From a virus (lineage: Duplodnaviria; Heunggongvirae; Uroviricota; Caudoviricetes), in the IMG/VR virus record IMGVR_UViG_3300027608_000017: a stretch of 64,000 nucleotides of DNA. The stretch is one strand, 5' to 3'. A program made the translations under genes and the position numbers. Each line of letters begins with the position of its first letter. Within the stretch, counting starts at the first letter, position 1. Shown piece by piece: positions 6,938-47,545 of this stretch. Under the pieces are notes generated by a model, which worked only from the letters and a program-made list of their open reading frames with translations, was not told the DNA's origin and made no database searches.

Positions 6938-6976
6938 GTTGCGTCCTTACAGTTGGTGAAAAAAACAGTTTAGAAC

Positions 6977-8029: not shown

Positions 8030-8943
8030 AGTGCGGCCCCTGTCAGAAGTTTGTTGCCCGACTCAATCGCGGGCGTACTCGTCCCGCTCAGTTTTTGTTC
8101 TTTCAGCTTCGAGTGCCGCAGCACGCGGAACGTCGATTCCTCGACCGTGTAAGACTTCCGCGTCTGCTGCCGGTATGAAAAAGTTCCGCCCGGCCATGAC
8201 GCGCCATCCGCATCCCCGAGAGACGCGAGCAACGCGGCCTGTGCCGTCTCCTTCAACTTGCTGGCCTTGGACGCCATGTCCGCAGCGGCGAGGTATTCCA
8301 TCGCCAATTCTTCAGGGACCGGGACGATCTTCCCCTCGGTGCGACACATCCGCTTCACGGTGTCGAGATGCGGGATCTCGCTCGGCGGACAGCGTGTCAG
8401 GACGTGATCTCGCCAGAACCGTTCAGACTCTTCTAAAATCATGTTCTGCAAGGAATCGTGTCGCTCGACCACATACATCAGGAATCCGCGACCGCCGATC
8501 AGCGCGGGCACCCAGGTCTTGGACTCGCCCGTGACGAGCATCTGGGAGTTGACCTGAAGAATGATCGCATCAGGCAGCGCGTCGCCGCCATCTCCCCATG
8601 CGTCGAAGTCAGCAGGCCCGACGATCCCGTGGGACTTGGCTTCCACTGGCTCGCCCGTTGGCAGCCGCCCGTCCAGAGTGCAGGCGTTGATCCCGTTTGA
8701 GTGAATCAGGAACTGAGCCGGAAGGATTTCCCCGAGTTGCTGCGATGCCCACTGGAGGATCACCGGCTCCAGCAGGTTCCCCGCTTCGGTCGCATCGTTG
8801 CCATCCCAGCGAGTGAGCGGCTCCGTCTTGTCGAGGTACACGTCCCGCGCGTTGCGGTACGGGCTGGCACCCAGAATGGCCGCCACATCCGTCGCCGTCA
8901 CGTACCCCTTGCGGCGTTCGAGTTCCATCGGAGAGAGAGACAT
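8026..8943 (-). CDS. YqaJ-like viral recombinase exonuclease (PD-(D/E)XK)
   Basis: N-terminal YVTATDVAAILGASPYRNARDVYLDK is the YqaJ domain signature. Confidence 0.7.
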   Translation of the reverse strand: MSLSPMELERRKGYVTATDVAAILGASPYRNARDVYLDKTEPLTRWDGNDATEAGNLLEPVILQWASQQLGEILPAQFLIHSNGINACTLDGRLPTGEPVEAKSHGIVGPADFDAWGDGGDALPDAIILQVNSQMLVTGESKTWVPALIGGRGFLMYVVERHDSLQNMILEESERFWRDHVLTRCPPSEIPHLDTVKRMCRTEGKIVPVPEELAMEYLAAADMASKASKLKETAQAALLASLGDADGASWPGGTFSYRQQTRKSYTVEESTFRVLRHSKLKEQKLSGTSTPAIESGNKLLTGAAL

Positions 8944-12456: not shown

Positions 12457-13668
12457 ATGAGGACGCCACCGACACAACTGAAGCAGGACAAGACCACTGG
12501 CCGCGCGTTTGCACGCTGGCAGGGCAAGAAAGTCTACTTCGGTAAGTGGGACACCGCCGAGGCTTCCAAGGCGTTCGGGGCTTGGCTGGCAGGGTTGCAC
12601 GCCACGCCGACGGCACCGGACCTGTCACAGAACCTGACCGTCTTGCAGTGCGTCGAGCAGTACCTCTACCACGCCGAGTCCTACTACTCGAAGGACGGGC
12701 AGACGACGCAGGAGTACCGGAACGTCTGCGCGGCGATGCAGACGCTGATCTGGCACGCGGGGGGGCCAAAGGATTTGGCGCGGGACTTCGGGCCACGGAA
12801 GCTGATCGCGCTCCAGAAGGCGATGGCGACTGAGACGGTTTCTGAGACGGTTTCGACGCTGCGATATGCGCGGAACACGATCAACTCGCGGATCGGCAAA
12901 ATCCGACGCTGCTTCCGCTGGTGCGCGGCACAGGAGCTGATCCCGGCCGAGATCGTGACAGCCTTGGAGATGGTGGACGGCGTGCCCGAAGGGCGTGGGA
13001 TGGCGCGGGAGTCGCCGGAGGTCGGGTCGGTCACGATCGCGACCGTGATCGCGACGTTGCCGCATCTCTCCCCCACTGTCGCGGCAATGGTGCAGGTCCA
13101 GCTCCTCTGTGGGATGCGCCCGCAGGACGTGTGTGGCATGACCTGGGGGCAGATCGATCGCACGGGCGATGTCTGGCTGTACCGCCCGCTGCGGCACAAG
13201 ATGCAGCACAAGCGGCAGTCGCTCGTGAAGGCGATCCCCGTCGCCGCGCAGCAACTGCTGACACCACTACTGCGGGAGGGACGCGACGAGCTGATCTTCT
13301 CGCCGGTCGATGCCAGCGAGTTCTGGCGGTCACAGGAGCGGAAGCCGCGCACAGTGCCGAAGGTGCGGGAGTGCGCGCGGGGGCCGTATGCGACCAGCGC
13401 CTACGGGCGAGCCGTGGTCTACGCCATCGCTCGGGCGAACAAGTCGGGCGCGACGGTGCCGCACTGGACGCCCAACCAGCTACGACACGCCATCGCCTCG
13501 CAGTTGCGGGGAACGAGCGGGATCGAGGCGGCGCAGGTGTTTCTCGGCCATGCCAAGCCCGACGCGACGCTCATTTATGCGGAGCAGTCGGAGGCGCGAT
13601 TGATTGAGATCGCGCGGGCGCTGGTTTCACCGCTTCCCAGTCCGTCTCCTGCGGCGAAAACTGACTGA
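12457..13668 (+). CDS. int: tyrosine-type site-specific integrase
   Basis: C-terminal box II LRHAIASQL...GIEAAQVFLGHAKPDATLIYAE with catalytic Tyr. Confidence 0.9.
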   Translation: MRTPPTQLKQDKTTGRAFARWQGKKVYFGKWDTAEASKAFGAWLAGLHATPTAPDLSQNLTVLQCVEQYLYHAESYYSKDGQTTQEYRNVCAAMQTLIWHAGGPKDLARDFGPRKLIALQKAMATETVSETVSTLRYARNTINSRIGKIRRCFRWCAAQELIPAEIVTALEMVDGVPEGRGMARESPEVGSVTIATVIATLPHLSPTVAAMVQVQLLCGMRPQDVCGMTWGQIDRTGDVWLYRPLRHKMQHKRQSLVKAIPVAAQQLLTPLLREGRDELIFSPVDASEFWRSQERKPRTVPKVRECARGPYATSAYGRAVVYAIARANKSGATVPHWTPNQLRHAIASQLRGTSGIEAAQVFLGHAKPDATLIYAEQSEARLIEIARALVSPLPSPSPAAKTD

Positions 13669-21311: not shown

Positions 21312-21559
21312 TCTCCACAGCACCGCAATTACGGAAGGCGGGTGATCGGATCTTCACGAAAGACGAAACCGTCCGGGTGTTGCATGGCTCATTTGCCGGG
21401 CGCTGCGGTGTCGTTCTCGCGCTGGTCGGGAACGAAGAGTCGCTCTTGCTAGAGATTCAGGTTCAAGGCGAGCCGGACACGACACTGCATCAGACCTCGG
21501 CCCTGTCGCGGGTCTATGACGACCACGCCCGTACAGGAAGCAGACCCTCATGTCGCTGA
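21308..21559 (+). CDS. hypothetical protein, possible KOW-like fold
   Basis: DRIFTKDETVRVLHGSFAGRCGVVLAL; overlaps neighbours by 4 and 10 nt. Confidence 0.4.
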   Translation: MISTAPQLRKAGDRIFTKDETVRVLHGSFAGRCGVVLALVGNEESLLLEIQVQGEPDTTLHQTSALSRVYDDHARTGSRPSCR

Positions 21560-24500
21560 TCTTCCCACTGATCCCCTCGCTGAATTTAGCAGATGTCGTC
21601 AACGCGGCGACGGCGAGGTCGAATCTCGGCCTGGCCATTGGCTCAAACGTGCAAGCCTACAACGCCAACACAACCGTACTCGGCAACACTACGACCGGCA
21701 CAGGGTCGATTGTACTAGCAACATCGCCGACGTTCGTCACGCCTGTACTCGGGGCCGCATCAGCAACGAGCCTCGCCTGCCCGACGTTCACATCTGCGGC
21801 TGCGATGGGGTTCACTCCTGCGAGCGGGAGCGGCTTCAGCGTCACGCTGGCGGGTGCTGGTGACTTCGCTGTCAACACGAATCAGTTGTGTGTTGATACC
21901 TCGCTCGGCAACGTCGGTATCGGCACGTCATCGCCCGGCTCTAAGCTAGAAGTATCCACGACAACCGGAACCAATGGTATAGCGATTACAAATTCAAGCG
22001 TTTCAAACAGAGGATTTATATTTTATCCTGTAACGAACGGCTCAAACACAGACGTGAGGTTTTATGAAAGCAGCCTAACGTCTGGTGACAGAGTGACATT
22101 TCAAGCTGGTGGCAACGTCGGCATCGGCACAACATCGCCATCAGCCAAACTCCACGCCATATCGACAACCGAGCAACTACGCTTGGGATATGATGCCTCG
22201 AACTACTACTCCACCACAGTCTCGTCGGCGGGGTCTGTAAATTTCGCTGCCACGGGGGCCAGTGCTGCGTTCGCCTTTAATGCTACCGTGACGGCATCCG
22301 GTGGGTTCATTACCGGAAATATTATACTTTACTCATCAACGGTCTCAGTACCGACAGCGACTAACGTCACAATCAATGTCAGGGCCAACACGTCAACAAT
22401 GGCGACAGGCTACTGTTATCGCGTCAGGCTGAATACGGCGGGGACAGGTACTGTAACCGGGGCTGTCTATATCATCAACCAGACATCCATCACACCGACG
22501 TGGGTTGCGACAGCGGTATCCGTCGCTGGTAGCACGACAAATCACCCATTGCTTATAGTATCTGGCTCGAACATTCAGGTTTATCACAATCACGGCTCAA
22601 CCTACTTGGTCAGCTATGTGGTTGAGACCATCGCACACAACAACGGTACTGCTAACGCAGCAACAATCTGGGGAGCAGACTCGTTATTTACCGGCACAGA
22701 CAGTACGTCAATTACGACCGCATCAGGCTACGCACTTGGTGTCGGAACATCGCCATCAGCAAAAATCCACGGCATATCAACGACCGAGCAACTGAGACTC
22801 GGATACGACGCATCAAACTATTATTCAACTACAGTTTCTTCTGCTGGAGCGGTCACGTTCGATGCTGTCGGAGCAAGCTCTGGTTTTACGTTCAGTGATG
22901 CTGTAACAGTGTCCGTTGCAACGCCTCTAGTGACATTTAAGCCAACTGCTAATAATCAGGATTGTGGACTTAAGGTACTTGATAGTGTCGGTGCGATTGC
23001 CGGATATCTGTCGATTGTCCCAAATACCATCGGGACCAACTCCAAATTCTTCATGTATCTCGGCGGTGCTGCTGCTGCTGATATTAAGATGACTGTTGAT
23101 GACGACGGTGTGACTAACATCAAGCGAGATGCCAGCAATTACTGCACTATAACCCCGTCTTCCGTTGGGCTAATAACTTTTGACGCTGTAGGTTCTGCTG
23201 CTGCGTTTACGTTTGCCGATAACGTAAGTGTGACCAATACGGCGGGCGACTGCATTGTAACCGCGACGGGCGGAACTCCATCTACTACAGCGGGCGATGG
23301 TTACTTACTTCTTACTTCATCTCGAACAGACACCGGCGTCGGCCACGTTTGCAAATTACGTTCAGTCGCACCATCAGCAGGTAAAGCTGACTTAGCGTTT
23401 CTAACGCAGCCATCAAACGGTGTTTACACCGAGCGAATGCGGATAGATAATGCGGGCAACGTCGGCATCGGTATGACCCCGACTTATCTCGTCGATATTC
23501 TCTCGCCGACGCTCACGAATTTCGGAACGCAATGGTTCATGCGGGCACGCGGGCCGAGCAGTTGCACGACCAACGGTACGAATTACATGCTCGCGTTCGA
23601 CATGGATGTGTCGAATATGTCCGTGTCGGCTGGAGTGACAGACTCAGGCTACAGAATGGGCGTGCGAGGTGACGCCTACTCCAGTGTCGCGGGATTCGCC
23701 GGGACACTCGCAACACAATATGGAGTTTACGGCAGGGCCGGAATAAACGTCGCGACAGCGGGGGCAGCGGTCACGAATGCCGAGGGGCTGCACGGCGAGG
23801 TGTTAAATTCGGTTGCTGGCACAACAATTACCAACGGTTTCGGGCTAAAGGTCGTCAACACCGGCACGACGGGTACGATGACAAATCGCTGGGGCGTTTA
23901 CGTTGATACTGCGACCGGCGGCAAGAACTATTTTTCGCACGCTGTCGGAGTTGGCTCAACGACGATATCCGCACAAATCCATGCTACATCGACGACTGAG
24001 CAACTAAGACTCGGATACGACGCCTCAAACTACTACTCGACGACAGTCTCGTCGGGTGGAGCGGTCACGTTCGATGCTGTAGGAGCCAGTGCTAGGTTTA
24101 CGTTTTCCGACCCGGTAACAGCACAGTCGTCGCTCACGCTCGGAGTAGCAAGTACTACAACAGGTTCACTGGTTCTGTGCGGTAGTGGTGGGGCCAACAC
24201 GCACACCATCAAAGCAGCAGCAATCCCTGCGGCAACGAATAGTTATGTCTGGCCGAGTGCCAGCCCGACAGCCAGTCAGGTGTTGACGGCATCGGCTCCG
24301 GCAACGGGAGTTGTGACGCTATCATGGTCCACGAGTAGTGTCGGTGATGTCGTGGGGCCAGCGAGTTCGACCGCCAATGCGGCCAGCGTGTTCAGTGGCA
24401 CGACGGGTAAGCTGCTGCGGGCCTCGCCAACCGTGACCTATTACTCTGTCGCAGCGGGGGTCGAGGACAAGATCGAGTTCGGGGCGACGTTCAAGGACTT

Positions 24501-25149
24501 TCGCACGGCGACGGATGGCGCGACGGTCACATTCGACTTAGACCTTTCGGATCAGTGGCAAGTCACTTTCGCGGGCAACCGCACGCTGGCCGTCAGCAAT
24601 GCCAGTATCGGGCAGGTGATCACGATTTTGCGGTATCAGGATGCGACGGGGAATCGGACGCCCACATGGTGGAGCAACATCACATGGAACAATGGTCTTG
24701 CCCCGGTCGATGACCCCACGGCAAGCGGCTGGAGCATGACGGTCCTCGCCTGCGAGGGACTCGACGCCTACAGCGTGCCGAAGTGGAAGGAAGTCTGCCG
24801 CTCGACGAGTGCCCCGCTTCGAGGCATTACGACGGCGACGGATGGTGCGACGGTCACGTTCGACCTGCGAGTCTGCCAGACGCAGCGCGTCACGTTGGCG
24901 GGCAACCGCACGCTGGCGCTGACGAGCGGCTCGTTCTACGTCGGACAGATGTTCGACATCAAGCTGACTCAAGATGCCACCGGATCACGCACTGTGACGT
25001 GGTTCAGCGCGGTCAAGTGGACAGGCGGCACGATACCGACACTCACGACCACGGCGGGCAGGAGCGACTGGTTTCGATTTATCTGCACCAACGCCAGTGG
25101 CTCTCCAACATTTGATTGCCTGGGCACGTCAATGAATTTGGTGGCGTGA
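21550..25149 (+). CDS. tail fiber / receptor-binding protein with triplicated module
   Basis: N-terminal ...ATARSNLGLAIGS tail-fiber motif, Gly/Ser/Thr-rich; about 55-aa module ...SAKIHGISTTEQLRLGYDASNYYSTTVSSAGAVTFDAVGAS... occurs three times. Confidence 0.7.
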   Translation: MSLIFPLIPSLNLADVVNAATARSNLGLAIGSNVQAYNANTTVLGNTTTGTGSIVLATSPTFVTPVLGAASATSLACPTFTSAAAMGFTPASGSGFSVTLAGAGDFAVNTNQLCVDTSLGNVGIGTSSPGSKLEVSTTTGTNGIAITNSSVSNRGFIFYPVTNGSNTDVRFYESSLTSGDRVTFQAGGNVGIGTTSPSAKLHAISTTEQLRLGYDASNYYSTTVSSAGSVNFAATGASAAFAFNATVTASGGFITGNIILYSSTVSVPTATNVTINVRANTSTMATGYCYRVRLNTAGTGTVTGAVYIINQTSITPTWVATAVSVAGSTTNHPLLIVSGSNIQVYHNHGSTYLVSYVVETIAHNNGTANAATIWGADSLFTGTDSTSITTASGYALGVGTSPSAKIHGISTTEQLRLGYDASNYYSTTVSSAGAVTFDAVGASSGFTFSDAVTVSVATPLVTFKPTANNQDCGLKVLDSVGAIAGYLSIVPNTIGTNSKFFMYLGGAAAADIKMTVDDDGVTNIKRDASNYCTITPSSVGLITFDAVGSAAAFTFADNVSVTNTAGDCIVTATGGTPSTTAGDGYLLLTSSRTDTGVGHVCKLRSVAPSAGKADLAFLTQPSNGVYTERMRIDNAGNVGIGMTPTYLVDILSPTLTNFGTQWFMRARGPSSCTTNGTNYMLAFDMDVSNMSVSAGVTDSGYRMGVRGDAYSSVAGFAGTLATQYGVYGRAGINVATAGAAVTNAEGLHGEVLNSVAGTTITNGFGLKVVNTGTTGTMTNRWGVYVDTATGGKNYFSHAVGVGSTTISAQIHATSTTEQLRLGYDASNYYSTTVSSGGAVTFDAVGASARFTFSDPVTAQSSLTLGVASTTTGSLVLCGSGGANTHTIKAAAIPAATNSYVWPSASPTASQVLTASAPATGVVTLSWSTSSVGDVVGPASSTANAASVFSGTTGKLLRASPTVTYYSVAAGVEDKIEFGATFKDFRTATDGATVTFDLDLSDQWQVTFAGNRTLAVSNASIGQVITILRYQDATGNRTPTWWSNITWNNGLAPVDDPTASGWSMTVLACEGLDAYSVPKWKEVCRSTSAPLRGITTATDGATVTFDLRVCQTQRVTLAGNRTLALTSGSFYVGQMFDIKLTQDATGSRTVTWFSAVKWTGGTIPTLTTTAGRSDWFRFICTNASGSPTFDCLGTSMNLVA

Positions 25150-25168
25150 CCACGCCGAGGACGATGCA

Positions 25169-25933
25169 GTGACCGCTTCAACCGCACAACCGAGACGATA
25201 CCGCGAGCAGCAGGCTGCTGAGCGTCCGTCGCTTGGCCCGTATCGACCCGTCACCGAGCCGTCGCGGATTCAGGGATCGCAGCGACTTGTCGTGACCATC
25301 GCCACGGGCGAGAAGTATCTTGCGATTTTGGGTTTGACTCGCCGACCAATGCAGGACTACTCCGAGCGCTGCGGCGCAGACTTCATCGAGATTACTGACA
25401 GCACGCAGGACTGGCCGCTCTACGAGAAGTTCCGGTTGCGAACGATTGCCGAGCGTTACGACCAGACGCTGTTTCTGGACGCGGATTGTCTCGTTCGCCG
25501 CAGGTGCCCGAACCTGTTCAGGATGTTCCCGAGCGGCGTGGCGATGCGCGATGACGCCTCGCTTTGGCCTGCCGATTGGATGCAGGCCCGTTGGACTGCG
25601 GTGATGTCGTCGCAAGGGATTGCTCGGTCGTTGCAGGAGCCGATCCGAGCGTGGAACACGGGTGTCGTGCTGTGTGACCGCGACCATGCGTTCTTGTGGG
25701 AGCCGCCAGAGCGACCGCTATCGGACGGGCACGAGTCAGAGCAAGTTTGGGTGCAGGCGACTCTGCAAGATCGGCTCGTCGAAGTGCAAGACATCGGGCC
25801 GGGATTCAATGACCAATACTACTACCCGACCTTCCGTCAAACCCTACCGCAGACGCAGATCGCTCACTTCGCACTTTGCCCTGACCGGCTGAACGAGATC
25901 GCGAAACTCAAAGCGGAATGGTGCCAGCCGTGA
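25169..25933 (+). CDS. putative GT-A fold glycosyltransferase (DXD)
   Basis: VVTIATGEKYLAI...TLFLDADCLV; family not assigned. Confidence 0.45.
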   Translation: MTASTAQPRRYREQQAAERPSLGPYRPVTEPSRIQGSQRLVVTIATGEKYLAILGLTRRPMQDYSERCGADFIEITDSTQDWPLYEKFRLRTIAERYDQTLFLDADCLVRRRCPNLFRMFPSGVAMRDDASLWPADWMQARWTAVMSSQGIARSLQEPIRAWNTGVVLCDRDHAFLWEPPERPLSDGHESEQVWVQATLQDRLVEVQDIGPGFNDQYYYPTFRQTLPQTQIAHFALCPDRLNEIAKLKAEWCQP

Positions 25934-27456
25934 ACGAATCAGAAGCTCTCTTGAAGATGGTCTCGCCGCGTGATCGGCGTCCCGGCGCTTGGCGTGGCGG
26001 TGTGATGCAGATCATGGTCACGCGCGCTTGCGACAAGGCGTGCTTCGGCTGTACCCAAGGGAGCAATCTGGGCGGCAAGCCCGTGTTCATGTCGCCGGAT
26101 CAGTTCGAGGAATCTCTGCTCTCGCTCAAAAGCTACTTCGGCGTGATCGCGCTGTTCGGCGGCAACCCGGCCATTCACCCGCAGTTCCCTGAGCTGTGCC
26201 GAATCATGCGTCAGCACGTCCCGTATGCTCAGCGCGGCTTGTGGTGCAACCATCCGCTGGGTCACGGCGCGTTGATGCGCGAGACGTTCAACCCTTCTGT
26301 CAGCAACATCAATGTGCATCTCGATCCAGAGGCTCGGGCCGAGTTCGAGCGGGACTGGCCGGAGAACACACGGCTGCTCGGGACCGACACAGACTCACGT
26401 CACAGCCCGCCGTTCGTCGCGATGCGGGACGTGATCGCCGATGAGTCCGAGCGATGGGAGTTGATCTCAAACTGTGACGTGAATCAGCGGTGGTCGGCAC
26501 TGATCGGCGTGTTCCGGGGCGAACTGCGAGGCTACTTCTGCGAGTTGGCCTACGCTCAGTCCGCACTCCATCAGCACGAGCCGGACTATCCCGACACGGG
26601 CCTGCCGATCTCTCCCGGTTGGTGGGATCAGGGGATGGACGACTTCGCTTCGCAGGCCCGCAAACACTGCCACGACTGTGGCATTCCGTTGCGTGGTCAC
26701 GGAGAATTGGCCATCGGCGGACAGACCGAGCAAGTCAGTGCGACTCACGCCGCAGCGTTCCACCCGAAGCGACGAGACCGGGCTGTCGAACTGGTTCAAC
26801 TGCGAACGCAGCTTGGCGCGACGCTGGACGTGGCGACGAACTACATCGAGAACGCGACGCGGATTGCGGAAGCCCCTGCTGCCGCACCGCCGGTCGATCT
26901 GGATTGCAACCCGCACACTGAACCCAGTGTCGCGGGTCTGATTCGCACGACACGCCGCGAGCTGGCTCGGATCATCGAACTGCTGCCGCCGAACGCGCGT
27001 CTGCTGGAGATCGGCACGGCCAGCGGAGGCACCGCCGCCCGGATCGCCGACGCCCGCCCTGACGTGCAGATCACCTGTATCGACATCTTCGCGGAATGGC
27101 CCGATCACTCTGTCATGCACCGGCCAGCCAACTGGAGGACCAACCAGCGGCCGAACATGCACCTCTGGGTGGGCGATGTCGCCAGCTACGCAGCCCAATG
27201 CGGGGTACTGTTTGACGTGGTGCTGATCGACGGCGACCACACCGAGGCGGGTGTCTCGCGTGACTTGGTGACGGCTCCCGAGTTGCTGGCTCCAACAGGT
27301 CTGCTGCTCGCGCACGACTACACCGATCCGAACTGGCCCGGTGTCCGAGCGGCGGTGGATCGGTTTTGCGATCAGGCATCGCAGAGCCACGACCACATTT
27401 TAGGTGGATGGAGAGTCGAGGAATGCTGCTGGTCCTTGGCAGTGCTTCGTCGATGA
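25918..27456 (+). CDS. fusion protein: N-terminal radical-SAM-like domain plus C-terminal class I SAM methyltransferase
   Basis: CDKACFGC (CxxxCxxC) followed by LFGGNPAIHP; C-terminus LEIGTASGGTA (motif I) and FDVVLIDGDH. Confidence 0.6.
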   Translation: MVPAVNESEALLKMVSPRDRRPGAWRGGVMQIMVTRACDKACFGCTQGSNLGGKPVFMSPDQFEESLLSLKSYFGVIALFGGNPAIHPQFPELCRIMRQHVPYAQRGLWCNHPLGHGALMRETFNPSVSNINVHLDPEARAEFERDWPENTRLLGTDTDSRHSPPFVAMRDVIADESERWELISNCDVNQRWSALIGVFRGELRGYFCELAYAQSALHQHEPDYPDTGLPISPGWWDQGMDDFASQARKHCHDCGIPLRGHGELAIGGQTEQVSATHAAAFHPKRRDRAVELVQLRTQLGATLDVATNYIENATRIAEAPAAAPPVDLDCNPHTEPSVAGLIRTTRRELARIIELLPPNARLLEIGTASGGTAARIADARPDVQITCIDIFAEWPDHSVMHRPANWRTNQRPNMHLWVGDVASYAAQCGVLFDVVLIDGDHTEAGVSRDLVTAPELLAPTGLLLAHDYTDPNWPGVRAAVDRFCDQASQSHDHILGGWRVEECCWSLAVLRR

Positions 27457-27507
27457 CCCGGACACAGTACGACTGACGTGTAACTTTGACATAAGGAAAA
27501 CCGTATC

Positions 27508-27798
27508 ATGGCATCAATTACATTCGAGGGGCCGAACCCAGCAGACCTGACCGCACGCAGCACGGTCGTGGTCACGATGGCTGACGAGGCTCTACTCTCA
27601 GTGGTGCAGGCGTTCTGCGAATTAGAGGGCTATAATCCCGAGACGCATGGCGGGCCGGGGCTGTTTACGATTCAGAAAACAGTGGATTTTTGGACACAGA
27701 AGGCAGAGTACAATATACGGTCTAAGGCCCGCACAGCCGTGGACATCTCTACCGACGAGCAGGTTGGGCCGATGAAAGAGTCGATTACCATCGTGTAG
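27508..27798 (+). CDS. hypothetical protein
   Basis: 96-aa ORF with RBS AAGGAAAACC. Confidence 0.45.
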   Translation: MASITFEGPNPADLTARSTVVVTMADEALLSVVQAFCELEGYNPETHGGPGLFTIQKTVDFWTQKAEYNIRSKARTAVDISTDEQVGPMKESITIV

Positions 27799-27834
27799 CG
27801 GGCGACAGGCGGTTTTTAGGGAGCGGTATTCGCA

Positions 27835-28410
27835 ATGGCAAAAACACTCGAAGTGAAAGCCCCCTCGGGGATGACATTGACCGCCGAAATCTTTATGCGC
27901 GGCGGCAACACGCTCATCGAGACCGTGGCGCTGACGGAGAAGACGGTTGCCAAGACGATCTACGAAGGGACGCTGGCGACCGCCTCGGGAAACAACTACG
28001 AGGTCGCGCTGAAAAGCGGCGCGAGCTACATCGGCACCGACGAGGTTTATGTGGGGACTGCGGCCACGGCGACCTATCGCGGCAGGTCGTGCGTCAACAT
28101 GGATCAAGCGGCGGGCAGCGAAACGGCCGCCACGGTCATCGCCGCGATCAATGCGGCCCTCAAAACCGGGACCGTCGATACCGGCACATTCTCGCCGACC
28201 ACGCTGGCGTTCGAGACGAGCCTGACGCAGAACTCGGACGAGTACACGAATCAGGCGATCCTGTGGACGACGGGAGCCAATGCGGGACTGACCTCGCGCA
28301 TCGTGACCTATGCCTACGCGAACGCGAAGGACAAGTTCACGGTGGGGACGGCCCTGCCGAACACGCCGACGAGCGGAGATGCGTTCGTGATCTTGGGTCG
28401 CCTCGAATAA
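27835..28410 (+). CDS. hypothetical structural-like protein (Thr/Ala/Gly-rich)
   Basis: 191-aa ORF. Confidence 0.5.
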   Translation: MAKTLEVKAPSGMTLTAEIFMRGGNTLIETVALTEKTVAKTIYEGTLATASGNNYEVALKSGASYIGTDEVYVGTAATATYRGRSCVNMDQAAGSETAATVIAAINAALKTGTVDTGTFSPTTLAFETSLTQNSDEYTNQAILWTTGANAGLTSRIVTYAYANAKDKFTVGTALPNTPTSGDAFVILGRLE

Positions 28411-28552
28411 ACACCAGTATCGTCTAAAGATTCCCCCGAAAAGCCGCGTTTGAGTGATGGGCTGGCGGGGGTAAACTGGCCAAAAACAGCCAGTTCCCGA
28501 GCATTCGCGGCTCGGAAACCGCGAGTGCCGCCACCGCACCAAGGGAATTTTC

Positions 28553-29152
28553 ATGACGATTCAACAGTCGATCACCGTCCGAAATGCGGCTCTGGATGCG
28601 TTCGAGACCACCGCCGGGGCCACCGCCGTACTCCAGATTCGTTCGGGTTCCCAGCCCGCGACGTGCGCCACGGCCTCTAGCGGCACCCTGCTCTGTTCGA
28701 TAACGCTCCCGTCAGACTGGATGTCGGCCGCTGCGTCGGGAGCCAAGGCCAAGCTCGGCACCTGGTCGGGCACGGCCGCCGCGACTGGCACCGCCGCGCA
28801 CTTCCGTATTTTTGAATCGACCGCGACCACATGCCACATACAGGGTGTGGCGGGGATTCTCGGCGGCACGACCTCGACGGGTTCACTGACGCTGAACTCG
28901 ACCGCCTCGACCCTGACCGCCTCGAACGCGAACATCGTCCCCGGCATGGCTGTCTCGGGGACCGGCGTCCAGTTCGGCACGACCGTGGCCTCGATCTCGG
29001 GCACGTCGCTGGTTCTCAGCCAGAACGCCTTGATTGCCGGTGCGTCTGTCACGTTGACGTTCACCAGTGACATGACGATCGACAACACGAGCATCGCGAC
29101 GAGCCAGACCGTCACCGTCACCACGTTCACCCTGACCGCCGGAAATGCGTGA
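28553..29152 (+). CDS. hypothetical structural-like protein (Thr/Ser/Ala-rich)
   Basis: 199-aa ORF. Confidence 0.5.
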   Translation: MTIQQSITVRNAALDAFETTAGATAVLQIRSGSQPATCATASSGTLLCSITLPSDWMSAAASGAKAKLGTWSGTAAATGTAAHFRIFESTATTCHIQGVAGILGGTTSTGSLTLNSTASTLTASNANIVPGMAVSGTGVQFGTTVASISGTSLVLSQNALIAGASVTLTFTSDMTIDNTSIATSQTVTVTTFTLTAGNA

Positions 29153-29186
29153 CGCTGGCAACTCCGATCAGCATTGGAGTTGACTC

Positions 29187-30686
29187 GTGACGCCTTTCCA
29201 ATTCTTTCTCGATGTCGGCACACCCAGACGGCTGGATGCGCCGCTCATCTTGTCTGGCGTCACGCTGGCGTCGGATGTCGCCGTCGCGCTCAATGTCGTG
29301 GCTGCGCCGACGCTCTCAGATGTCACGCTGGCGTCGGACCTCGCGCTGGGCCTGTCTCTGGTCGCGGCTCCGGCACTCGGCGATGTCAGCCTGTCCAGCG
29401 AACTGGCCGTGGGATTGGCTGTGTCCGCGAGCGCCACGCTGGGCGACGTGGTGCTATCGAGCGCTCTCGCGACGGATGTCGCGCTGGTGTCCGCAACCAC
29501 GTTGGGCGACGTGACGCTCAGCGGTAATCTCGCGGTCGGGCTGGCTCTGGTGTCCGCGTCCACACTCGGCGATGTGACACTCAGCAGCGACGTGGCATCC
29601 GCGTCCGCACTGATGGCGGCCGTGGCCCTAGATGGCGTCACGCTGACGAGTGACCTCGCCGTCGAGCTGGCATTGAGCGCGACAGCCACGCTCGATGACG
29701 TGACACTGACGAGCGGCCTGACGGCGGAAGCCGCGCTGGTCGCGGGAATCACGCTGGAGGGCGTGACACTGTCGTCCGCCGCCACTGTGGGCCTGTCGCT
29801 CACCGAGAGCGCGACGCTGGCCGATGTCGTGCTGTCCAGCGACGTGACCGCAGTCCTCGCGCTGGTGGTGAACACGACGCTGGCGGGAGTGAGTCTGTCG
29901 AGCGACGTGATCAGTGCAGCGCCGGTCGTCGTGACGCTGGATGACGTGACCTTGACGGGTGCTTTGGCCGTCGCGCTGGACCTCGTATCGGCCCCGACGC
30001 TCGACAGTGTGACGCTGGCAGCCAGTGCGATGGTCGGAGTCGAGATTACCCACACGGCCACGCTCGGCGATGTTGTTTTGGTCGGGTTGGTCTCGGTCGG
30101 GTTGGTCTCGGTCGAGTCGGCAGTGGGGCTGTCTGTCACGCTGGACGACATGACCACAAACGCCACGGCGGCGGCGGGGATCGCGATCGGCGGGGTGATC
30201 GCACTGGAGAACACGTCTCTCGGGTCAGGCACAATCCGTGGACTGGTGTCGTGCGGCCTGTCGGCTACGCTCGACAACATCGTCTGCGTCTCAGAACCGG
30301 AGGAGAATTCACTCGGCACGCTCTGCGTCGCCGCGTCGCAAGTCGTCTCTTCGGGCGCGGCGCAGGTCCGCGTGCTGTGCCCCGAGGTGAGTGCCAGTCA
30401 GATCACCCATCTGGACGCCGCGCAGGTGCGGGTACTCTGTCTGGGGCTGAGTGCCGATCAAGTCGCCTGCTTGGACGCGGTGCAGGTCCAGATCCTGTCT
30501 CCGGGGCTGAGTGCCGCTCAAGTCCTCTATTCAGACGCCGCGCAGGTCCGGATACTGCACCCCGAGTTGGTCGCGGGTCAAATCGCCTATTTGGGCGCCG
30601 CGCAGGTCCGGGTACTATGTCCGGGTCTAAGTGCTGGTCAAATCGTCTACGGTGGCTCCGTCGCCGCCGTCTCTGGCTGTCCATAG
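29187..30686 (+). CDS. tandem-repeat protein: about 15 x 20-aa repeats then 6 x 20-aa Cys-containing repeats
   Basis: Repeat A consensus TLGDVTLSSDLAVGLALVSA; repeat B AAQVRVLCPGLSAGQIAYLD; plus strand chosen from context and beta-strand-like periodicity. Confidence 0.55.
   Translation: MTPFQFFLDVGTPRRLDAPLILSGVTLASDVAVALNVVAAPTLSDVTLASDLALGLSLVAAPALGDVSLSSELAVGLAVSASATLGDVVLSSALATDVALVSATTLGDVTLSGNLAVGLALVSASTLGDVTLSSDVASASALMAAVALDGVTLTSDLAVELALSATATLDDVTLTSGLTAEAALVAGITLEGVTLSSAATVGLSLTESATLADVVLSSDVTAVLALVVNTTLAGVSLSSDVISAAPVVVTLDDVTLTGALAVALDLVSAPTLDSVTLAASAMVGVEITHTATLGDVVLVGLVSVGLVSVESAVGLSVTLDDMTTNATAAAGIAIGGVIALENTSLGSGTIRGLVSCGLSATLDNIVCVSEPEENSLGTLCVAASQVVSSGAAQVRVLCPEVSASQITHLDAAQVRVLCLGLSADQVACLDAVQVQILSPGLSAAQVLYSDAAQVRILHPELVAGQIAYLGAAQVRVLCPGLSAGQIVYGGSVAAVSGCP
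29230..30130. repeat. 60-bp tandem DNA repeats, about 15 copies, about 70% identical
   Basis: Period-60 recurrence of gacgtgacgctg...gcg. Confidence 0.8.
30330..30660. repeat. second 60-bp tandem repeat array (about 6 copies)
   Basis: gccgcgcaggtccgggtactgtg...ctgagtgcc..tcaagtc recurs six times. Confidence 0.8.
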
Positions 30687-31080: not shown

Positions 31081-31122
31081 TTTCGTTTGTTTCGGATAAG
31101 TTCTCTCTGCGAGGCGCGGTGC

Positions 31123-31713
31123 ATGTCGTTGATCGTGGGTTTTTGCGGGCACTCCGGAGTCGGGAAAGACACTTGTGCCCGACTCCTTCCGGTAGTGCTG
31201 CCGGGGGTTTCCGTCGATAGTGTGGCGCTGGCGGGCCGCGTCAAGTTGGTGGCGCATTCGCTCTACGGGCATCTGGGCCTTGAGCATCCCTCCCACTACG
31301 ACGCGAACCGTCAGGCCCGCCACGTCAAGTTGCCGCTCATCGGCAAGTCAGCGCTGGAACTCTGGTGTGAGATCGGCGACGGGATGCGACGAGTCTACGG
31401 GAACACCTGGGTGGACCTCGCGCTCAATTATGCGAACTCCAGCACCAGCGACGTGGTCTGCGTCACGGATGTGCGCTACCCTAACGAGGCCGAGTCAATC
31501 CAACGGGCGGGCGGATTCGTCGTCAAGATTCACAACCCCCGCACCAAGCCGCTCGCGACGCAGGCCGATCACGCGCTCGACGGCTGGGCGGGTCACTACG
31601 ATTACGATCTGCTCAACGACGGGACCGAGACCGACCTCGAAAACCGGCTCCACAAATTCGGCAAACATCTCGCCAAACGGCTGCAACTCGACAGAAAACA
31701 GAACTGTCTGTAA
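31123..31713 (+). CDS. T4 gp1-like deoxynucleoside monophosphate kinase
   Basis: P-loop GFCGHSGVGKDT, VTDVRYPNE (compare T4 VPDTRQDHE), LLNDGTETDL (compare ITNDGSLEEL). Confidence 0.65.
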   Translation: MSLIVGFCGHSGVGKDTCARLLPVVLPGVSVDSVALAGRVKLVAHSLYGHLGLEHPSHYDANRQARHVKLPLIGKSALELWCEIGDGMRRVYGNTWVDLALNYANSSTSDVVCVTDVRYPNEAESIQRAGGFVVKIHNPRTKPLATQADHALDGWAGHYDYDLLNDGTETDLENRLHKFGKHLAKRLQLDRKQNCL

Positions 31714-37542: not shown

Positions 37543-40500
37543 ATGCCCGCTGATTTCCTCGAAGCCCTCGCCGTTGCCGCCGCCCATTACCTGCCCGAGC
37601 ATGAGTTTTCGGCAATGCCAGCCGATCTACCGCAGACGAAATATACAGGGAACAAGCCATACACAGGGAAGTTGCCGACCGGAACGGTAGGGCGCAAAGT
37701 CGCCTTACCTCCACCGCCACTCATCCACGGGACGGACGCCGCCGGATACCGGACTTCATTCGCGCCGACAGGCGGCGCGACCAAGGCAGCGGCCGATCCA
37801 TACACGGGCACATTCGGCCCGAAGCCACCTCCACCGCCAGAGATGGTAAGATTGAAGGAGCCGAGTCACTCGGACTTCCAAGTGCCGTTCCCCGCTGACG
37901 CACACCGCGAACACCTCAGTGGCCTGGCCAGCATAGCAAAAAGCAATCCGGCGGCACTCCACCGGGACGATCACGCGGCCCTGTTGAGGCACTTCAGCAC
38001 TCAGGCAAATCGGTTCTCCGATCGCGTCAAACGCGGCGAAAAAGTATGGCAGGGCGAGGCCGATCACTTCCAAGATGCCTCGCGAAGCCTGTCGAACCAC
38101 ATGACCAGGCAGCAGCAGTTTTCTCGGCGATCCACCCCCGAGGAGATCGCGGCGAACGAAGCCGAGCCGACGCATATCCGGCGTCTCAAGATGCCGGACC
38201 ACAAGGATTTCCATTCCGGCTATAGCTACGGCGAGACGTTTCACGGGCACGTCAACGACATGGCCGACCTGGCCGTAGCTGACCCGAGCCGCATTCACCC
38301 CGACGACCATCCGGCACTGCATCACTATTTCGGGAAAAATCTGCACATCAAGCGCATGGGGCAGGCGTCCAAAATTCTGCGGGAACATGCCGCCAAGTCA
38401 GCAGAGTCAGCCAAGAAGCCATCGCCGCAGAAGCCCAACTATCGCGTGACGTTCTCGCGCGAGGAGACGGCGACGGAGTTCGCCCGCAAGGCCAAACCCG
38501 CCGCCGGTCAGAAGTCGATGTTTGGCGATGACGACGACGAGCCGAGCGCACCCGCTCCAGCACCAGCGGCGCAGGCGATCACACCCACCAAGGCCGGTGC
38601 CGGAGACTGGGACGAAGACTTGCACCCGCGCGGCGATCACGGCAAGTGGGCGCTGGCGGAATCGCACGAGCCGCAGCCGAACCACATCCACGCTGACGTG
38701 CGCGACCACGAAGGCGAGACGATGGGCTATCTCTCGCATCCTCACGACGGGACGACGAATGGCATCCGCGCGGCCCACGCCGAGGCCAAGGAGGGGTTGA
38801 CCTCGGCCGGTCACGACTGGTCGAGTCCTCACACTCGCTGGGGCGCGACAGACCACACTGGGGAGCCACGGCATCACATCAGTCACGACGGCCAGCAATT
38901 GACGGACGTGGCCGATCCCCGCAACGCCCAGCGCGGCCCAGGTGGCTTTGAGGCACCGCCGAAGAAGGCGCGACCAGCACCATACCCGAAGGCGCCGGAA
39001 CGAGAAGACCGCAAAGCGGAAAGGGAAAGCGCATTCTATCCCAAGCAGGCAGCGGAGCCAGCCATCCCCGCCGACCTCGCCGAAAAGTACCCGTCGTTGG
39101 TGGAGCCGCACGCCGCTGCCCCCGAGCCGGAGCAGCACTGGTATGGGATGCACAACCGCCCGCCCGCGATCGGCGCGATCCCCAAGGGGAACTACGACCA
39201 CAAGCCCCACGACGAGTTCCGGCACGGGCAGATTTCGTATGGCAGGCCGCTCACTGAAAAGGAGCAGTACGACTACGAACTGACTCCGATTCGCAACGAT
39301 TCAGAAATTCCCGCGCTGGCGAGGGGCGTTGCCGAACGAATGGGACCGTACGTCGCGAAGTATTTGGCACCGGGCGCAGAGAAGCTGCTCAATGGGTTTC
39401 TCCGCCATGGACAATCCGCAAAAGATCTTGGGCACGTCGATCCCGAGAAGATTAAGGCCGAACTGCGGAAACAGCACGGATCAACCGAATCCACTCCCAG
39501 CGTCGCGGCCCAGGAGGAAGCTCCAGTCGGGAAACCGGCGAGCGACGCGCAGGAGGGGGCCAGTGACGGCCGGGAATCCGTAAGCAACGACACGCTGTTC
39601 AAGCGATCCGGCCAGCAGTTCGAGGAAATTCAAAAGTCACTCGGCATCACCAAGCCGCAGATGGGACAGCAGGGAGCCGACGCCGTGCGCAAGGCTTTGG
39701 CGTCTCGCGTCGGCGGCCCCGTGATCGCCGAGATGCTCAAGGTCCACGAGCATAGCCCGGACGCATTCGCGAGACACGGATTCGCCACCGGCACCGAGGC
39801 TTATCGCGACTCGCTGAGTGGGAAGTTCTCGAAAGAGCAGTTGCTCGACGCCTCGCGATTCGCGGCCGGACACGAAAACGGCGATATGTCGCGGTTCGTG
39901 CGCGACAGCATTCGCGGCGCGACAGCGACAGACGGTGGTGTTAGCGCCGAGGACCACGCACGCGCGCATCAGGCTGGCAGCCTAGATCGTCTCGCGAAAT
40001 CGCAAGGCGCAGATGAGGCGAAGGCGACGAAGCGGCAGGCCGATGATTTGATGGTTCCGTCACCGCCCGCGTCAGGTGACGCGAATCATGGCTCGCCAGC
40101 TTCTTCCGAGGCTGACTCAGAATGGAACCACCAGCACTCCGACCAAGAGAAGGGCTATCGAGAGCAGGAGCGGACGTTTAGCGAGGTCATGAATGATCCG
40201 AGCAAGTCGTCGCTGAGGGATTTGACGCTGGCGTATGGACAGGGCACGCACCTGATGCGGCACTGGGACCGTCGCGCCGAACGCGGAGAGATCACAGCCC
40301 AGCAGCGCGACGACCACAATGACGGGATGCGGCGTGAACTCGACCACATCAGTAGCCTCCAGAGGGACTACATCAACGGGCGGAAAGCCGCGCCCGCCGA
40401 CGACATGAGCCGCGCCGAGAAGATTGCCGAAGAGGCGTATCACTCGAAGACGCCGCTGGAGTCAGTCGCTCGCAACATGGGATTGACCAAGAGCGAATGG

Positions 40501-43500
40501 CATGACGAACGAGCCGCAGCATCGAAGCTCCACGGCGAGTTGAGTCAGTACGATGGCGAGCCTGCGCAGCCGAGCAAGGCCCGCGCGAAGGCGATGGCGA
40601 GTCAGCAGGCCAAGCAGGCAGCGGAGCCGCTCCCCGCCGACATCGCCGAGAAGTACCCGTCGTTGGTGGAGCCGAAGCCAAGCCACAAGCACATCCCTCT
40701 GTACCAGAACCCGCCAAAACGAGAGGGCGATCTCGAAGTTGACCACGACCCCGACTACCATGTGACGCGACACGCCGACAGGCTGAATGACGCAATCACA
40801 GACGCCAAGGAGAGCGGCGGGATAGACGCACCGTCGATCCAGAGCCGACACCGAATCGCCAAGGGGCTGAGTCCCGACGAGATGACGCGGCTCGGCGAGC
40901 ATCTCGGGATCGAAGACACCTCGCCCCGTGGTGTGCAGGAACACATTCAGGCTCAATTGGAAGACGCGATCAGCCAGCACGGACAGAACACCTACGCCGC
41001 CGCCGGATCGAACCCCGGCAATCGCCCAGACGACTCATCGGGAGCAGAACGCCGAGTCAAGGCCGCCGCCGCGAAGCTAGTGGAACTGGACGACAAGCCG
41101 TTCTCGCCGTACTGGCAAGACAAACGATCCGAGGCCAAGAAGGAACTCGCCGCCGCTAAGGACGAGATGAATCGGTCCACGAATGCCGCGCGAGACTCCA
41201 AGCCGGAGGCAGCGAAGCCATTCCGGCCCGAGGCGGTCCCCGGCCAACAGATGGGCATGTTCGGCGAGGAGAGATCGGGACAAAAGCAACTCTTCAACGT
41301 CGTGAAGCCGAAGCGAGGCGACAAGCCGCAAGCTGTCGCGCCGTCAGAATTGGAGAGGATCGGCGACGAGATTGACGCACGTCAGGCGGAACGTCAGCCG
41401 CTGCCGGGGCAGAAGTCGATCGCGGAACCTGAAGATCAAGAAGACGAGAAGACGTTTCCATCGCAATCTGAAGTCGATTTCGCGAAGACTCTAGCCCAAA
41501 AACATGGTTCTCCAGTCTCTCCCGTAACATCAGCAAGCGGGCGACATGAGTTGGCGTCTCGGTTCAGTAACATGCTGGAAAGGGCCGCAGGCAAGTCCAC
41601 AGACGAATTGGAGTTGGAACAAATCCTGTCAGCGGCAAAGGGGAAGACGGATGAGAGCCGCGTTGCATGGGCGATTGCAAACAATCCGCATTCAAGCGAC
41701 GCCGTGTTCGAGAAAGCAAAAGCAAACGAGGCGATGAGGGAGATGTCTCCCGATTCCGCCATCAGCCACCTTGATGCCCGCCGAGCCGAATTGAGGAAGA
41801 ATCGCGGCCTTGCGGCACCATCGCAGTCGATCGAGGAGCAGTACCCGTCGCTGAAGGAGCCACCGGCAGGCGATATCGCCAAGCGAGTCTCGAACGACGA
41901 GTTCGCCGACGGGGACTGGGATCAGGCCCACAGCGGACTCGCCAGCGAAATCGTCCAGTCGAAGATGGTTCAGGGCATGAAGGGGATCGAAGGCCGCGAG
42001 TACGGGATGCGCGAGCATTCCCCCGGCAAGTGGCAGATGGTTTCACGACCGGGCAAGACGGCGGAACAGATCAAACGAGACAAGCCATCAACCCAGCGAG
42101 AAGCAGACGAAGCAGTCGTCTCGTCGAATATGCGATCCAATCTCTTTGATGAAATGAGGGACGAAAAAACGCAGTCGGATCGCAAGGAAAAAGTATCGAA
42201 ATGGAGGGGCCAGTACGCCGATTCGCCGCGAGAGAACATCGCCTCTGGAGACATAGCAAGGCACGACTGGGAAAAGGCTATTCAAAACGGAGTTGCGCCA
42301 GCACGTCTCTCCGAGATGGTTGAAGACGCAATCAGGTCGGGCGCTTTAGACGCCGGTGTCGGGAAGCACCTGAAGGAAAAATTCTCCGTCGAGGAGCAGT
42401 ACCCGTCGCTGAAGGAGCCAGCGGCACCCGAAGGCGCGGATGAGTCGCACTACCGCGACAACCTGAAGGACATAAAGAAACACGCGGCGACTGCTAAGGC
42501 CGTCGCAAACTCAGGCGTCAACGCCGGTCACAGTGTGCAGAAAATGATGTCGGACTTCCGAGATAACGGGATGATGGAGGGGGACGCGCGCCGGACAATT
42601 CTCGACGCATTCGACCGCACGGGTGTCCCTGTCAATCACGGAGACGCGAAGACGGCGGAACCAGCGTCCGTCGATCACAAAGAGGCCGAGCTACTCCGAC
42701 AGCAGATCGCGAAACTGGAGGGACACGCTGAGAAGCTGGACAAGGGCGCGGCGTCACTCAAGGCGAAAGAATACAAGCCGAACAGCGGGCGGATCACGAA
42801 GCTCGACCAGTTCGGCGAAGAGGTGGGAACGCAATCCATCGGCGACGTGAACGAGAGGCGTCGATCAAGGTCGATTGACCTATCGAGCCACCAGTCACAG
42901 GAGAACCGCGAACTCGTCGCGAAGCTCAAGGGGAAACTCGCTGCCACCGAGAAGCGGATCGAGAGGGATGCGCCGTATCAGGACGACGGCAAAACAGAAG
43001 ACGAACTGATGGGCGAATGGCTGAAGGAGACTCACCCGGAGCTGGCAAACAAGTCTCCGAAGGCTGAACCGCCAACTTCCGGCCGAGAGAACAACGCAAA
43101 GATCATCCGCGCCGAGAAGAAAATCTCTGACCTGCGACAGGAGAAGGCGCGGCTCGCGCCGGGCCTGAAGATCCCCCACAAGGCCAGCGAGGCGGAACTC
43201 GGGATCGCGGCTCTCGATGCCAGGATCGCGAAGGCGCAAAAGTCACTGGATCAGGTGAAGGCCGAGTCCGGCTTCAAGTCCGCGCCGGACATCACCGACC
43301 AGTACCCGTCGCTGAAGGAACCGGAAGCGGTGGCGAAGCAGCCTCATGAGATGACAAAGGACGAGTACGTCCGACAGTTGCCGGAAGGTGAAGAATACCA
43401 GCGGCACGCCAAGGAGTGGGCAGCAATTTCCGGCGACAAGGAATTAAGGAGACTGTCAAGGCAGCAAGAGGAACATGGATGGGAGAAGCCTCCCACTTAC

Positions 43501-46291: not shown

Positions 46292-46771
46292 TTGTGGTTC
46301 TACAAGGCCCAGTTCGGCACCTGGCAGGACAAGTTCATCTCGTGGTGGACGGTCGGCCCGTACTCGCATGTGGAACTCGTGTTTCCCGACGGCCGCTGCT
46401 TCTCGTCCAGCCCGCGCGATGACGGCGTCAGGGTGACGCGCATCCCGCCGTCAGATCACTGGACGGTGGTGAAGTTGCCGCAGATGCCCACCAGCCCGGC
46501 AGGCGCTCTCGCCGTGTCGCTGGAGTGCGCCCGATTCATCGGGCGGGGCTACGACTGGCTAGGCTGCTTCGGCTGCTGGACGGGCGTCTCCAGCGTCCAC
46601 GACGGCAACCGCTGGTACTGCTCCGAGATCGTGATTCACATGCTCAATCGGTTCGCCGTCGGCCCGGCGATCCCCGAGCGACTGAATCCCAACAGGCTGT
46701 TCGATCACTTGGCGACAGCAGGTCTTCGCGCCTCAAACCCGTCGGCCAGCACCTGCGCGACGCGCGACTGA
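46292..46771 (+). CDS. possible permuted NlpC/P60-like (His before Cys) hydrolase
   Basis: YSHVELVF...RGYDW...NRWYCSEIV; start codon uncertain (TTG). Confidence 0.3.
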   Translation: MWFYKAQFGTWQDKFISWWTVGPYSHVELVFPDGRCFSSSPRDDGVRVTRIPPSDHWTVVKLPQMPTSPAGALAVSLECARFIGRGYDWLGCFGCWTGVSSVHDGNRWYCSEIVIHMLNRFAVGPAIPERLNPNRLFDHLATAGLRASNPSASTCATRD

Positions 46772-47331: not shown

Positions 47332-47364
47332 GGTTCGTTTCGTTGTTGGTGGGCCGGTAATCAT

Positions 47365-47545
47365 GGCGACACGCTCAAGCGGAGAGCAGATTCTCAAGTC
47401 GTTCCGCCCAGTAGGTCGCTTCAGGGTCGGTGAACCCCCGCTTGGCAATGCGGAAGATTTCGCACAGCGTGGACGAGACTGGAATCGTTTGCGGCGTCAA
47501 CTCGGCGAGTTCAATGGCGGCTTCGAGTCGTTCGATGGGTGGCAT
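47365..47545 (-). CDS. small hypothetical protein (about 56 aa)
   Basis: MPPIERLEAAIELAELTPQTIP...; below the ORF-track cutoff, fits the strand context. Confidence 0.25.

Follow-up and report, generated by a model that had tools for sequence, protein, structure and literature searches.

A twitch-type radical SAM enzyme fused to a methyltransferase next to a phage glycosyltransferase: a candidate carbohydrate-tailoring cassette

In the chlorovirus PBCV-1, the capsid glycan is synthesized by virus-encoded enzymes, A064R together with A061L; A064R consists of two glycosyltransferase (GT) domains and a methyltransferase (MT) domain, the terminal rhamnose of the glycan being O-methylated by the last of these (PMC9614988). 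In actinobacteriophages, passages of two reports associate phage GT and MT genes with extensive glycosylation of virion proteins (PMC13313380, PMC12582341), the presence of a GT and an MT being taken as a sign of virion glycosylation in a passage of the first of these (PMC13313380). Another close comparison is with SpeY (spectinomycin) and BtrN (butirosin), two dehydrogenases of the twitch subclass of radical S-adenosylmethionine (SAM) enzymes. Here, we analyze a 64,000-nucleotide stretch of the uncultivated virus record IMGVR_UViG_3300027608_000017 (Caudoviricetes), hereafter the window, in which two overlapping open reading frames (ORFs) encode a GT (ORF1) and a fusion of a radical SAM domain (rSAM) with an MT domain (ORF2; Table 1). 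We propose, with a probability of roughly 0.5, that this pair is the minimal, compact form of a widespread, uncharacterized phage cassette for carbohydrate tailoring, a virion protein being the most likely target.

The parallel with PBCV-1 lies in the proposed role: as there, the GT of the window is virus-encoded and lies among the structural genes. Conversely, A064R contains no radical SAM part, belongs to a giant virus of eukaryotes, and shares about 12% sequence identity with ORF1; its MT is fused to a GT, whereas in the window the MT is fused to rSAM. The actinobacteriophage systems, for which Freeman et al. 2023 is reportedly the source cited, differ in host phylum and phage lineage, and the passages concerned mention no rSAM enzyme.

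Both genes are where the sequence-only reading of the window had placed them, including the 16-nt overlap; their GC content at third codon positions (GC3) is coding-like (0.72 and 0.75 for ORF1 and ORF2, respectively), and neither product has a transmembrane segment. The four motifs which that reading listed for ORF2 (CDKACFGC, LFGGNPAIHP, LEIGTASGGTA and FDVVLIDGDH) are all at the places claimed, and the two domains it assigned are recovered by Pfam. Radical_SAM (PF04055) matches residues 33-100 marginally (30.1 bits against a gathering threshold of 29.5, E 6.6e-7), with several homologues falling slightly under the threshold, and Methyltransf_24 (PF13578) matches residues 363-468 (54.8 bits against 26.3, E 1.9e-14). 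In an alignment of 98 homologues, C38, C42 and C45, which lie inside the Radical_SAM match, are invariant, and so are G82 and N83 of the SAM motif F80-G81-G82-N83-P84, in which N replaces the E of 'GGE'; C94 in the core is nearly invariant. The sequence-only reading had hung its radical SAM assignment on the nature of the cysteine motif and on a glycine-rich SAM-binding motif, and ORF2 has both.

A second invariant set of cysteines in the same alignment comprises C186, C208, C251 and C254. In the AlphaFold model of residues 1-310, where the predicted local distance difference test (pLDDT) exceeds 90 across most of the domain, C186 is followed by strands 194-199 and 202-206, then by C208 and by helix 240-251, which ends in C251/C254. 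The twitch subclass is defined by a beta-hairpin with one cysteine on each side, two cysteines after helix alpha-2' and a single auxiliary cluster, and in BtrN these four cysteines supply all the ligands of one auxiliary [4Fe-4S] cluster (PMC6231123). The cysteine arrangement in the ORF2 model fits this subclass, and binding of an auxiliary cluster is predicted. The full seven-cysteine SPASM motif, with its second auxiliary cluster, is absent, there being only four invariant cysteines downstream of the core. As only about 30 residues precede the core, ORF2 has no PqqD-like RiPP recognition element (RRE) at its N-terminus, and neither the model nor Pfam shows an additional domain there; no PqqD-like family turned up in those neighbourhoods whose Pfam lists were consulted.

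Searches of the PDB sequences with phmmer and with the 98-sequence profile yielded no link to characterized radical SAM enzymes, the best match being QueE (E 0.31), and nothing at all for the twitch part; NCBIfam gave only matches far below threshold (ArsS, MoaA and HxsC), and none of Pfam, NCBIfam and PHROG has a family specific to the ORF2 N-terminal domain. Therefore, we relied on structure for the comparison. In structural alignments, the N-terminal domain appears to be a twitch-type radical SAM enzyme most like SpeY and BtrN, which are sugar/cyclitol dehydrogenases; given identities of 13-17% and no profile match to PDB sequences, we stop short of assigning it to that family. It differs from SpeY and BtrN in three further respects: the family reads GGNP in place of GGE, as does QueE (GGNPAL in the Bacillus subtilis enzyme, 5tgs); its gene linkages and fusions are with GT, MT and sulfotransferase genes and not with aminoglycoside clusters; and it is found solely in viral, metagenome and metagenome-assembled genome (MAG) contigs. 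Viperin-, QueE- and NrdG-like readings were also considered, one JGI source labelling a homologue 'organic radical activating enzyme'; they were rejected, since the features that prevail are the twitch domain and the SpeY-like fold.

The linker of ORF2 joins two genes that in most relatives are separate and overlapping, the stop of the rSAM gene and the start of the MT gene typically sharing 4 nt. Structural and sequence neighbours of the MT domain are class I O-methyltransferases (YrrM/TrmR, CCoAOMT/COMT), including the sugar O-methyltransferases CalS11, SpnH, SpnK and MycE. The sole PHROG match of ORF2 is to a family labelled 'DNA methyltransferase' and covers the MT domain only. A search with the MT domain alone found just two distant standalone relatives; thus, the MT partner is highly divergent.

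The rSAM domain, in contrast, is more conserved than any partner gene: for the same pairs of phages, its median identity is 54%, compared to 40% for the commonest GT and 31% for the MT, which is often unalignable. The domain of about 310 residues has more than 1000 matches at about 60% identity in a 90%-clustered database, mostly standalone proteins of about 312 residues. The family comprises 546 clusters at 50% identity (E <= 1e-3), 92 of them at E <= 1e-30, and IMG/VR holds 171 relatives. Among 185,579 species genomes, matches occur in 12 contigs, all 12 from MAGs and none from an isolate, and none of the 50,697 GenBank phage records has a homologue of rSAM or ORF2. Independent assemblies yielded four close relatives with the MT fusion (P0001-P0004), so that the fusion is real and not an assembly artefact. 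Two MAG contigs carry the rSAM gene at their extreme end, CAVTOY010000016.1 (L009, 218 kb) and an 83.5 kb contig of a Schlesneria paludicola MAG (L007); if these are integrated prophages, they may assign hosts directly (Gammaproteobacteria and Planctomycetota). In two other family members (P0129, P0130), an intein with a LAGLIDADG homing endonuclease is inserted directly after the SAM-binding motif FGGNP(S/A)L, which is equivalent to nucleotides ~26175..26181 of the window. Inteins are usually found in important proteins, at active-site motifs that are highly conserved, and the insertion site here fits the unusually strong conservation of rSAM.

To describe gene linkage, ORFs were called in 98 rSAM loci and searched with an iterated MT profile, which could in principle recruit other class I MTs; its matches have E values of 1e-20 to 1e-50. 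Of the 98 loci, 4 have the MT fused to rSAM and 48 have it as the directly neighbouring gene on the same strand (together 52/98), in the latter case on either side of rSAM and usually with a 4-nt overlap; the MT lies within 3 kb in 16 further loci and was undetected in 28, several of which are truncated. The sequence-only reading called the domain pairing unusual, and this holds for the fused form, whereas having the two as neighbouring genes is the norm in the rSAM family. After dereplication at 90% identity, 70 of 78 groups have GT-like and/or MT genes within 5 kb (45 both, 13 GT-like only, 12 MT only), and 8 have neither. The recurrent neighbour clusters are GT2_4-like (65/98 loci), Methyltransf_24 (58/98), glucosyltransferase-like (phrog_854; 40/98), Glyco_trans_1_2-like (35/98), a Caps_synth/Gly_transf_sug/GT2 double GT (15/98), RMNT_CmcI rhamnosyl-O-methyltransferase-like (14/98) and cytidylyltransferase (10/98). 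Single loci also carry an NDP-sugar epimerase/dehydratase, a DegT aminotransferase, Sulfotransfer_4 and thioredoxins. Other lineages show further fusions: rSAM with GT2 (E 3e-31), Sulfotransfer_4 with rSAM (E 7e-29), rSAM with MT11 and GT2, and an independent rSAM-Methyltransf_24 fusion at about 40% identity. In yet another locus (L030), a protein combining an ORF1-like GT with Methyltransf_24 adjoins rSAM. The linkage of rSAM, MT and GT is thus conserved, and on this evidence tailoring of a carbohydrate is likely.

The same L030 protein (6699..8552, plus strand, 617 aa), directly upstream of rSAM, begins with a weakly Erv1/Alr sulfhydryl-oxidase-like N-terminus, followed by the ORF1-like GT region and Methyltransf_24. 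Thioredoxin-family genes also recur near the cassette and may point to a redox partner of the Fe-S enzyme.

ORF1 has the GT-A Rossmann-like fold in its AlphaFold model (pLDDT 80.9) and the DxD metal/nucleotide-sugar motif, D104-x-D106, as expected of the DXD glycosyltransferase that the sequence-only reading took it for. Its few homologues also conserve N163-x-G165, E191-Q192 and H233, a set of DxD, NxG, EQ and His positions that we take to be the pattern of GT8 retaining glycosyltransferases. DxD, NxG, the C-terminal His and the GT-A fold are shared with the GT8 enzymes LgtC, glycogenin and the C-terminal domain of WbbM, although the match to Pfam Glyco_transf_8 is below threshold (19.5 bits against 24.3); therefore, we call ORF1 GT8-like and not a certified member. 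The top matches of an ORF1 profile among PDB sequences are all GT8 (WbbM, glycogenin, LgtC) and all weak (E 0.013 or worse), and the best structural match is a viral capsid-glycosylating enzyme. The possibility that ORF1 is a diverged version of the most frequent partner GT (cluster c0) was considered and rejected, the hhalign probability being 41% and confined to the N-terminal GT-A half. The window contains no homologue of neighbour clusters c0, c2, c3, c5 and c6; its cassette is a minimal version, with one GT8/GT34-like GT and the rSAM-MT fusion.

The position of the cassette is structural. ORF1 starts 20 nt after the stop codon of a 1199-aa protein whose C-terminus matches PHROG tail-fibre families, in agreement with the sequence-only reading that put the pair beside a tail fibre. 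A same-strand virion structural protein (phrog_3758, E 7.4e-22) follows 3' of the cassette, which consequently lies inside a structural module. Similar positions are seen in relatives: the independent rSAM-MT fusion in L103 is two genes after the major capsid gene in the portal-to-capsid module, Pam3 structural families lie near rSAM in L003, and tape-measure genes are upstream in 9 loci, the far flank of the cassette usually carrying recombination or exonuclease genes. Since the tail-fibre translation is very rich in Ser, Thr, Gly and Ala, the fibre is a candidate target of glycosylation.

The following model would account for these features. The cassette would be expressed together with the late (virion) genes. 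ORF1 would carry out a metal-dependent, retaining transfer of a sugar from a nucleotide sugar to an acceptor, most likely a virion protein, either the tail fibre or another structural protein. ORF2 would join two enzymes that are encoded in most related phages by separate, translationally coupled genes. The [4Fe-4S] cluster bound by CX3CX2C would cleave SAM to a 5'-deoxyadenosyl radical that abstracts hydrogen from a sugar substrate, with the second, fully cysteine-ligated cluster as a putative electron acceptor; the likeliest chemistry would be a two-electron step of the SpeY/BtrN kind that turns a secondary alcohol of the sugar into a ketone, or an epimerization, and the class I O-methyltransferase would methylate the same sugar. 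The radical step on a sugar is a guess suggested by the structural likeness, and the weakest link of the model. The broader idea that the twitch enzyme is the conserved core of an unrecognized phage glycan-tailoring system, performing radical oxidation, epimerization or deoxygenation of virion-protein sugars, is put forward tentatively and is somewhat doubtful as a whole.

The principal rival of virion-protein glycosylation, which we consider unlikely, is remodelling of the host surface: in lysogeny or late infection, the GT would add a sugar to an envelope glycan (lipopolysaccharide (LPS) core, O-antigen, capsule or S-layer) and rSAM-MT would tailor it, blocking superinfection or preventing re-adsorption of progeny to debris. 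Such a role would suit a temperate phage with an integrase and RecT/YqaJ, and ORF1 does resemble the GT8 enzymes that build LPS and O-antigen (LgtC, WbbM); moreover, one neighbour cluster matches Caps_synth, and PHROGs class the glucosyltransferase-like family (c2) as 'moron, auxiliary metabolic gene and host takeover'. However, the cassette is located inside late structural operons and not beside the integrase or immunity region, immediately behind the tail fibre here and close behind the capsid gene in L103; it comes without a flippase, a GtrA/GtrB-like or other membrane protein, or a transmembrane segment, and the occurrence of the family in no more than 12 MAG contigs, and in no isolate, among the species genomes is unlike a lysogenic-conversion module shared with hosts. 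Direct modification of a protein we judge to be improbable. Here, the twitch enzyme would cross-link, epimerize or oxidize a virion protein or small peptide, as anSME, sactisynthases, PoyD/EpeE and MftC do, and the GT and MT would then decorate it, following the rSAM, GT and MT logic of mycofactocin. Peptides are substrates of many twitch/SPASM enzymes, but the domain lacks an RRE, and both its high conservation and its sugar-transferase fusion partners argue otherwise.

The sequence-only reading had left room for a route of DNA or nucleotide hypermodification, with the GT glycosylating a modified base and rSAM-MT making or tailoring the appended group, and this we regard as very unlikely. Virus-encoded GTs that glycosylate phage DNA are known (bioRxiv 10.1101/2023.12.21.572611), although that preprint contains no mention of a radical SAM enzyme. 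The window does encode MazG (confirmed by a Pfam scan) and an N6/N4 DNA MTase (N6_N4_Mtase), as had been claimed, and PHROG labels the MT domain of ORF2 as a DNA methyltransferase. MazG and N6/N4 DNA MTases are common phage genes. The third gene cited in favour, a T4-like dNMP kinase, gives a DNMK match of about 50 residues that stays below threshold (19.6 bits against 27.1), and despite a P-loop-like N-terminus its assignment is uncertain. A Pfam scan of 42 window ORFs (nearly all of at least 150 aa; a few ORFs of 140-220 aa were outside the scan) turned up no hydroxymethylase/thymidylate-synthase homologue, TET/JBP, C5-MTase, DpdA/QueC-E, amino-acid:DNA transferase or aGPT-Pplase; genes of this kind are likewise not among the recurrent neighbours of rSAM across about 100 loci, and the cassette lies in structural and not in replication modules. 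The other alternative of that reading, modification of a glycan, is supported by the GT-A fold and capsid-GT match of ORF1, by the likeness of the MT to O-methyltransferases of sugars and small molecules, and by the presence of rSAM amid, or fused to, sugar genes in about 100 loci.

Virion-protein glycosylation is, in our view, the best single target, at about even odds, given that the cassette is located in structural operons, that its enzymes are soluble, that isolate genomes lack it, and that there are precedents in chloroviruses and actinobacteriophages. Several points weigh against it. The virion target is read from gene position only, and cytoplasmic GT8 enzymes also act on LPS cores, so that for a temperate phage host-surface conversion remains a rival. 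The MT domain is modelled with only moderate confidence (pLDDT ~60-75), and several GT assignments of the neighbour clusters are under Pfam thresholds. The rSAM family combines low identity to SpeY and BtrN with the lack of a sequence hidden Markov model link to them, and many of its structural neighbours (PqqE, SuiB, SkfB, EpeE, anSME) act on peptides or proteins and not on sugars. More generally, function is not predictable from similarity within the SPASM/twitch subfamily (PMC6231123).

Each piece of the cassette is already known in kind, namely, twitch radical SAM enzymes, class I O-methyltransferases, GT-A glycosyltransferases and virus-encoded glycosylation. What appears to be new is the rSAM family itself and a putative viral glycosylation cassette that includes a radical SAM enzyme, as we found no description of either in the literature on phage radical SAM enzymes with tail fibres, GTs or MTs, on phage twitch enzymes, and on virion glycans with radical SAM enzymes. 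Phage virion glycosylation is a recent and poorly mapped subject, and it alters recognition by antibodies, which makes it relevant to phage therapy. If the proposal is correct, viral glycosylation would gain its first radical SAM enzyme, and viral glycobiology a radical chemistry; chemically elaborate virion glycans would be common among uncultivated phages of many phyla, a new twitch reaction would await characterization, and the family would provide a sequence marker for glycosylated phages in metagenomes. In the fused rSAM-MT protein, a common module takes on a rare architecture; the fusion has Rosetta-stone value, showing which MT works with rSAM, and offers a single-polypeptide handle for biochemistry.

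Table 1. Features of the window relevant to the cassette (positions refer to the whole 64,000-nt stretch)
Feature	Coordinates	Strand	Remarks
N6/N4 DNA MTase	2038..2853	-	N6_N4_Mtase
Integrase	12457..13668		
Tail fibre protein	21550..25149	+	1199 aa; PHROG tail-fibre match at residues ~1095-1188 (C-terminus)
ORF1	25169..25933	+	254 aa, GTG start; soluble retaining GT-A glycosyltransferase (GT8/GT34-like)
ORF1 DxD, D104/D106	25475..25492	+	kept in homologues
ORF1/ORF2 overlap	25918..25933	+	16 nt
ORF2	25918..27456	+	512 aa, ATG start; radical SAM + methyltransferase fusion
rSAM core + twitch-type auxiliary-cluster domain (predicted)	25918..26862	+	ORF2 residues 1-315
CX3CX2C (CDKACFGC), C38/C42/C45	26029..26052	+	ORF2 residues 38-45
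SAM motif LFGGNPAIHP	26152..26181	+	ORF2 residues 79-88
C186	26473..26475	+	auxiliary Cys, ORF2
C208	26539..26541	+	auxiliary Cys, ORF2
C251 + C254	26668..26679	+	auxiliary Cys, ORF2
Disordered linker	26863..26946	+	ORF2 residues ~316-343; pLDDT <50
Class I SAM methyltransferase domain (Methyltransf_24, O-methyltransferase-like)	26947..27456	+	ORF2 residues ~344-512
MT motif I, LEIGTASGGTA	27004..27036	+	ORF2 residues 363-373
MT motif FDVVLIDGDH	27211..27240	+	ORF2 residues 432-441
Virion structural protein	28553..29152	+	phrog_3758 'virion structural protein'
dNMP kinase-like (identity uncertain)	31087..31713	+	P-loop-like N-terminus

According to Pfam scans, the window is the genome of a temperate phage. 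In addition to the genes mentioned above, it encodes an RNase T-like exonuclease, a trypsin-like protease, a Band-7 protein, a sigma factor, a sliding clamp, a terminase and a 2655-aa polyvalent protein. Megablast of 24000..29000 and tblastn of ORF2 against the GenBank phage records found no close relative, hence there was no annotation to borrow; the nearest relative is a contig binned with a Schlesneria (Planctomycetota) MAG, with 82% identity in ORF2.

The tail-fibre gene holds three copies of a segment of about 45 aa, 'STTEQLRLGYDASNYYSTTVSS.G.V.F.A.GAS'. Its GC content is atypically low (0.52 over 22-24 kb, compared to about 0.61 elsewhere) and its GC3 bias is weak, which suggests a mosaic or recently acquired receptor-binding region. 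Further downstream, two long ORFs, 29187..30686 (plus strand) and 29168..30319 (minus strand), overlap on opposite strands. The product of the former, for which Pfam and PHROG give no match, consists of degenerate 'LGDVTLSS/ATLGDV' repeats, the last of its sequence being 'AAQVRVLCPGLSA' repeats encoded by a tandem array with a 60-nt unit (30356..30649, 4.9 copies); it is possibly a fibre-like or surface protein. The 2655-aa ORF (37543..45510, plus strand) has DarA_C as its sole Pfam match, while its 2619-aa counterpart in a related locus (L001) matches Portal_Mu, WH_1, DUF8437 and Helicase_dom, and it looks like a giant polyvalent, probably virion-packaged protein. In the region of this ORF, AT skew is +0.28 to +0.39 across about 8 kb, and an LPD29-domain protein is encoded nearby (46705..47448, minus strand).

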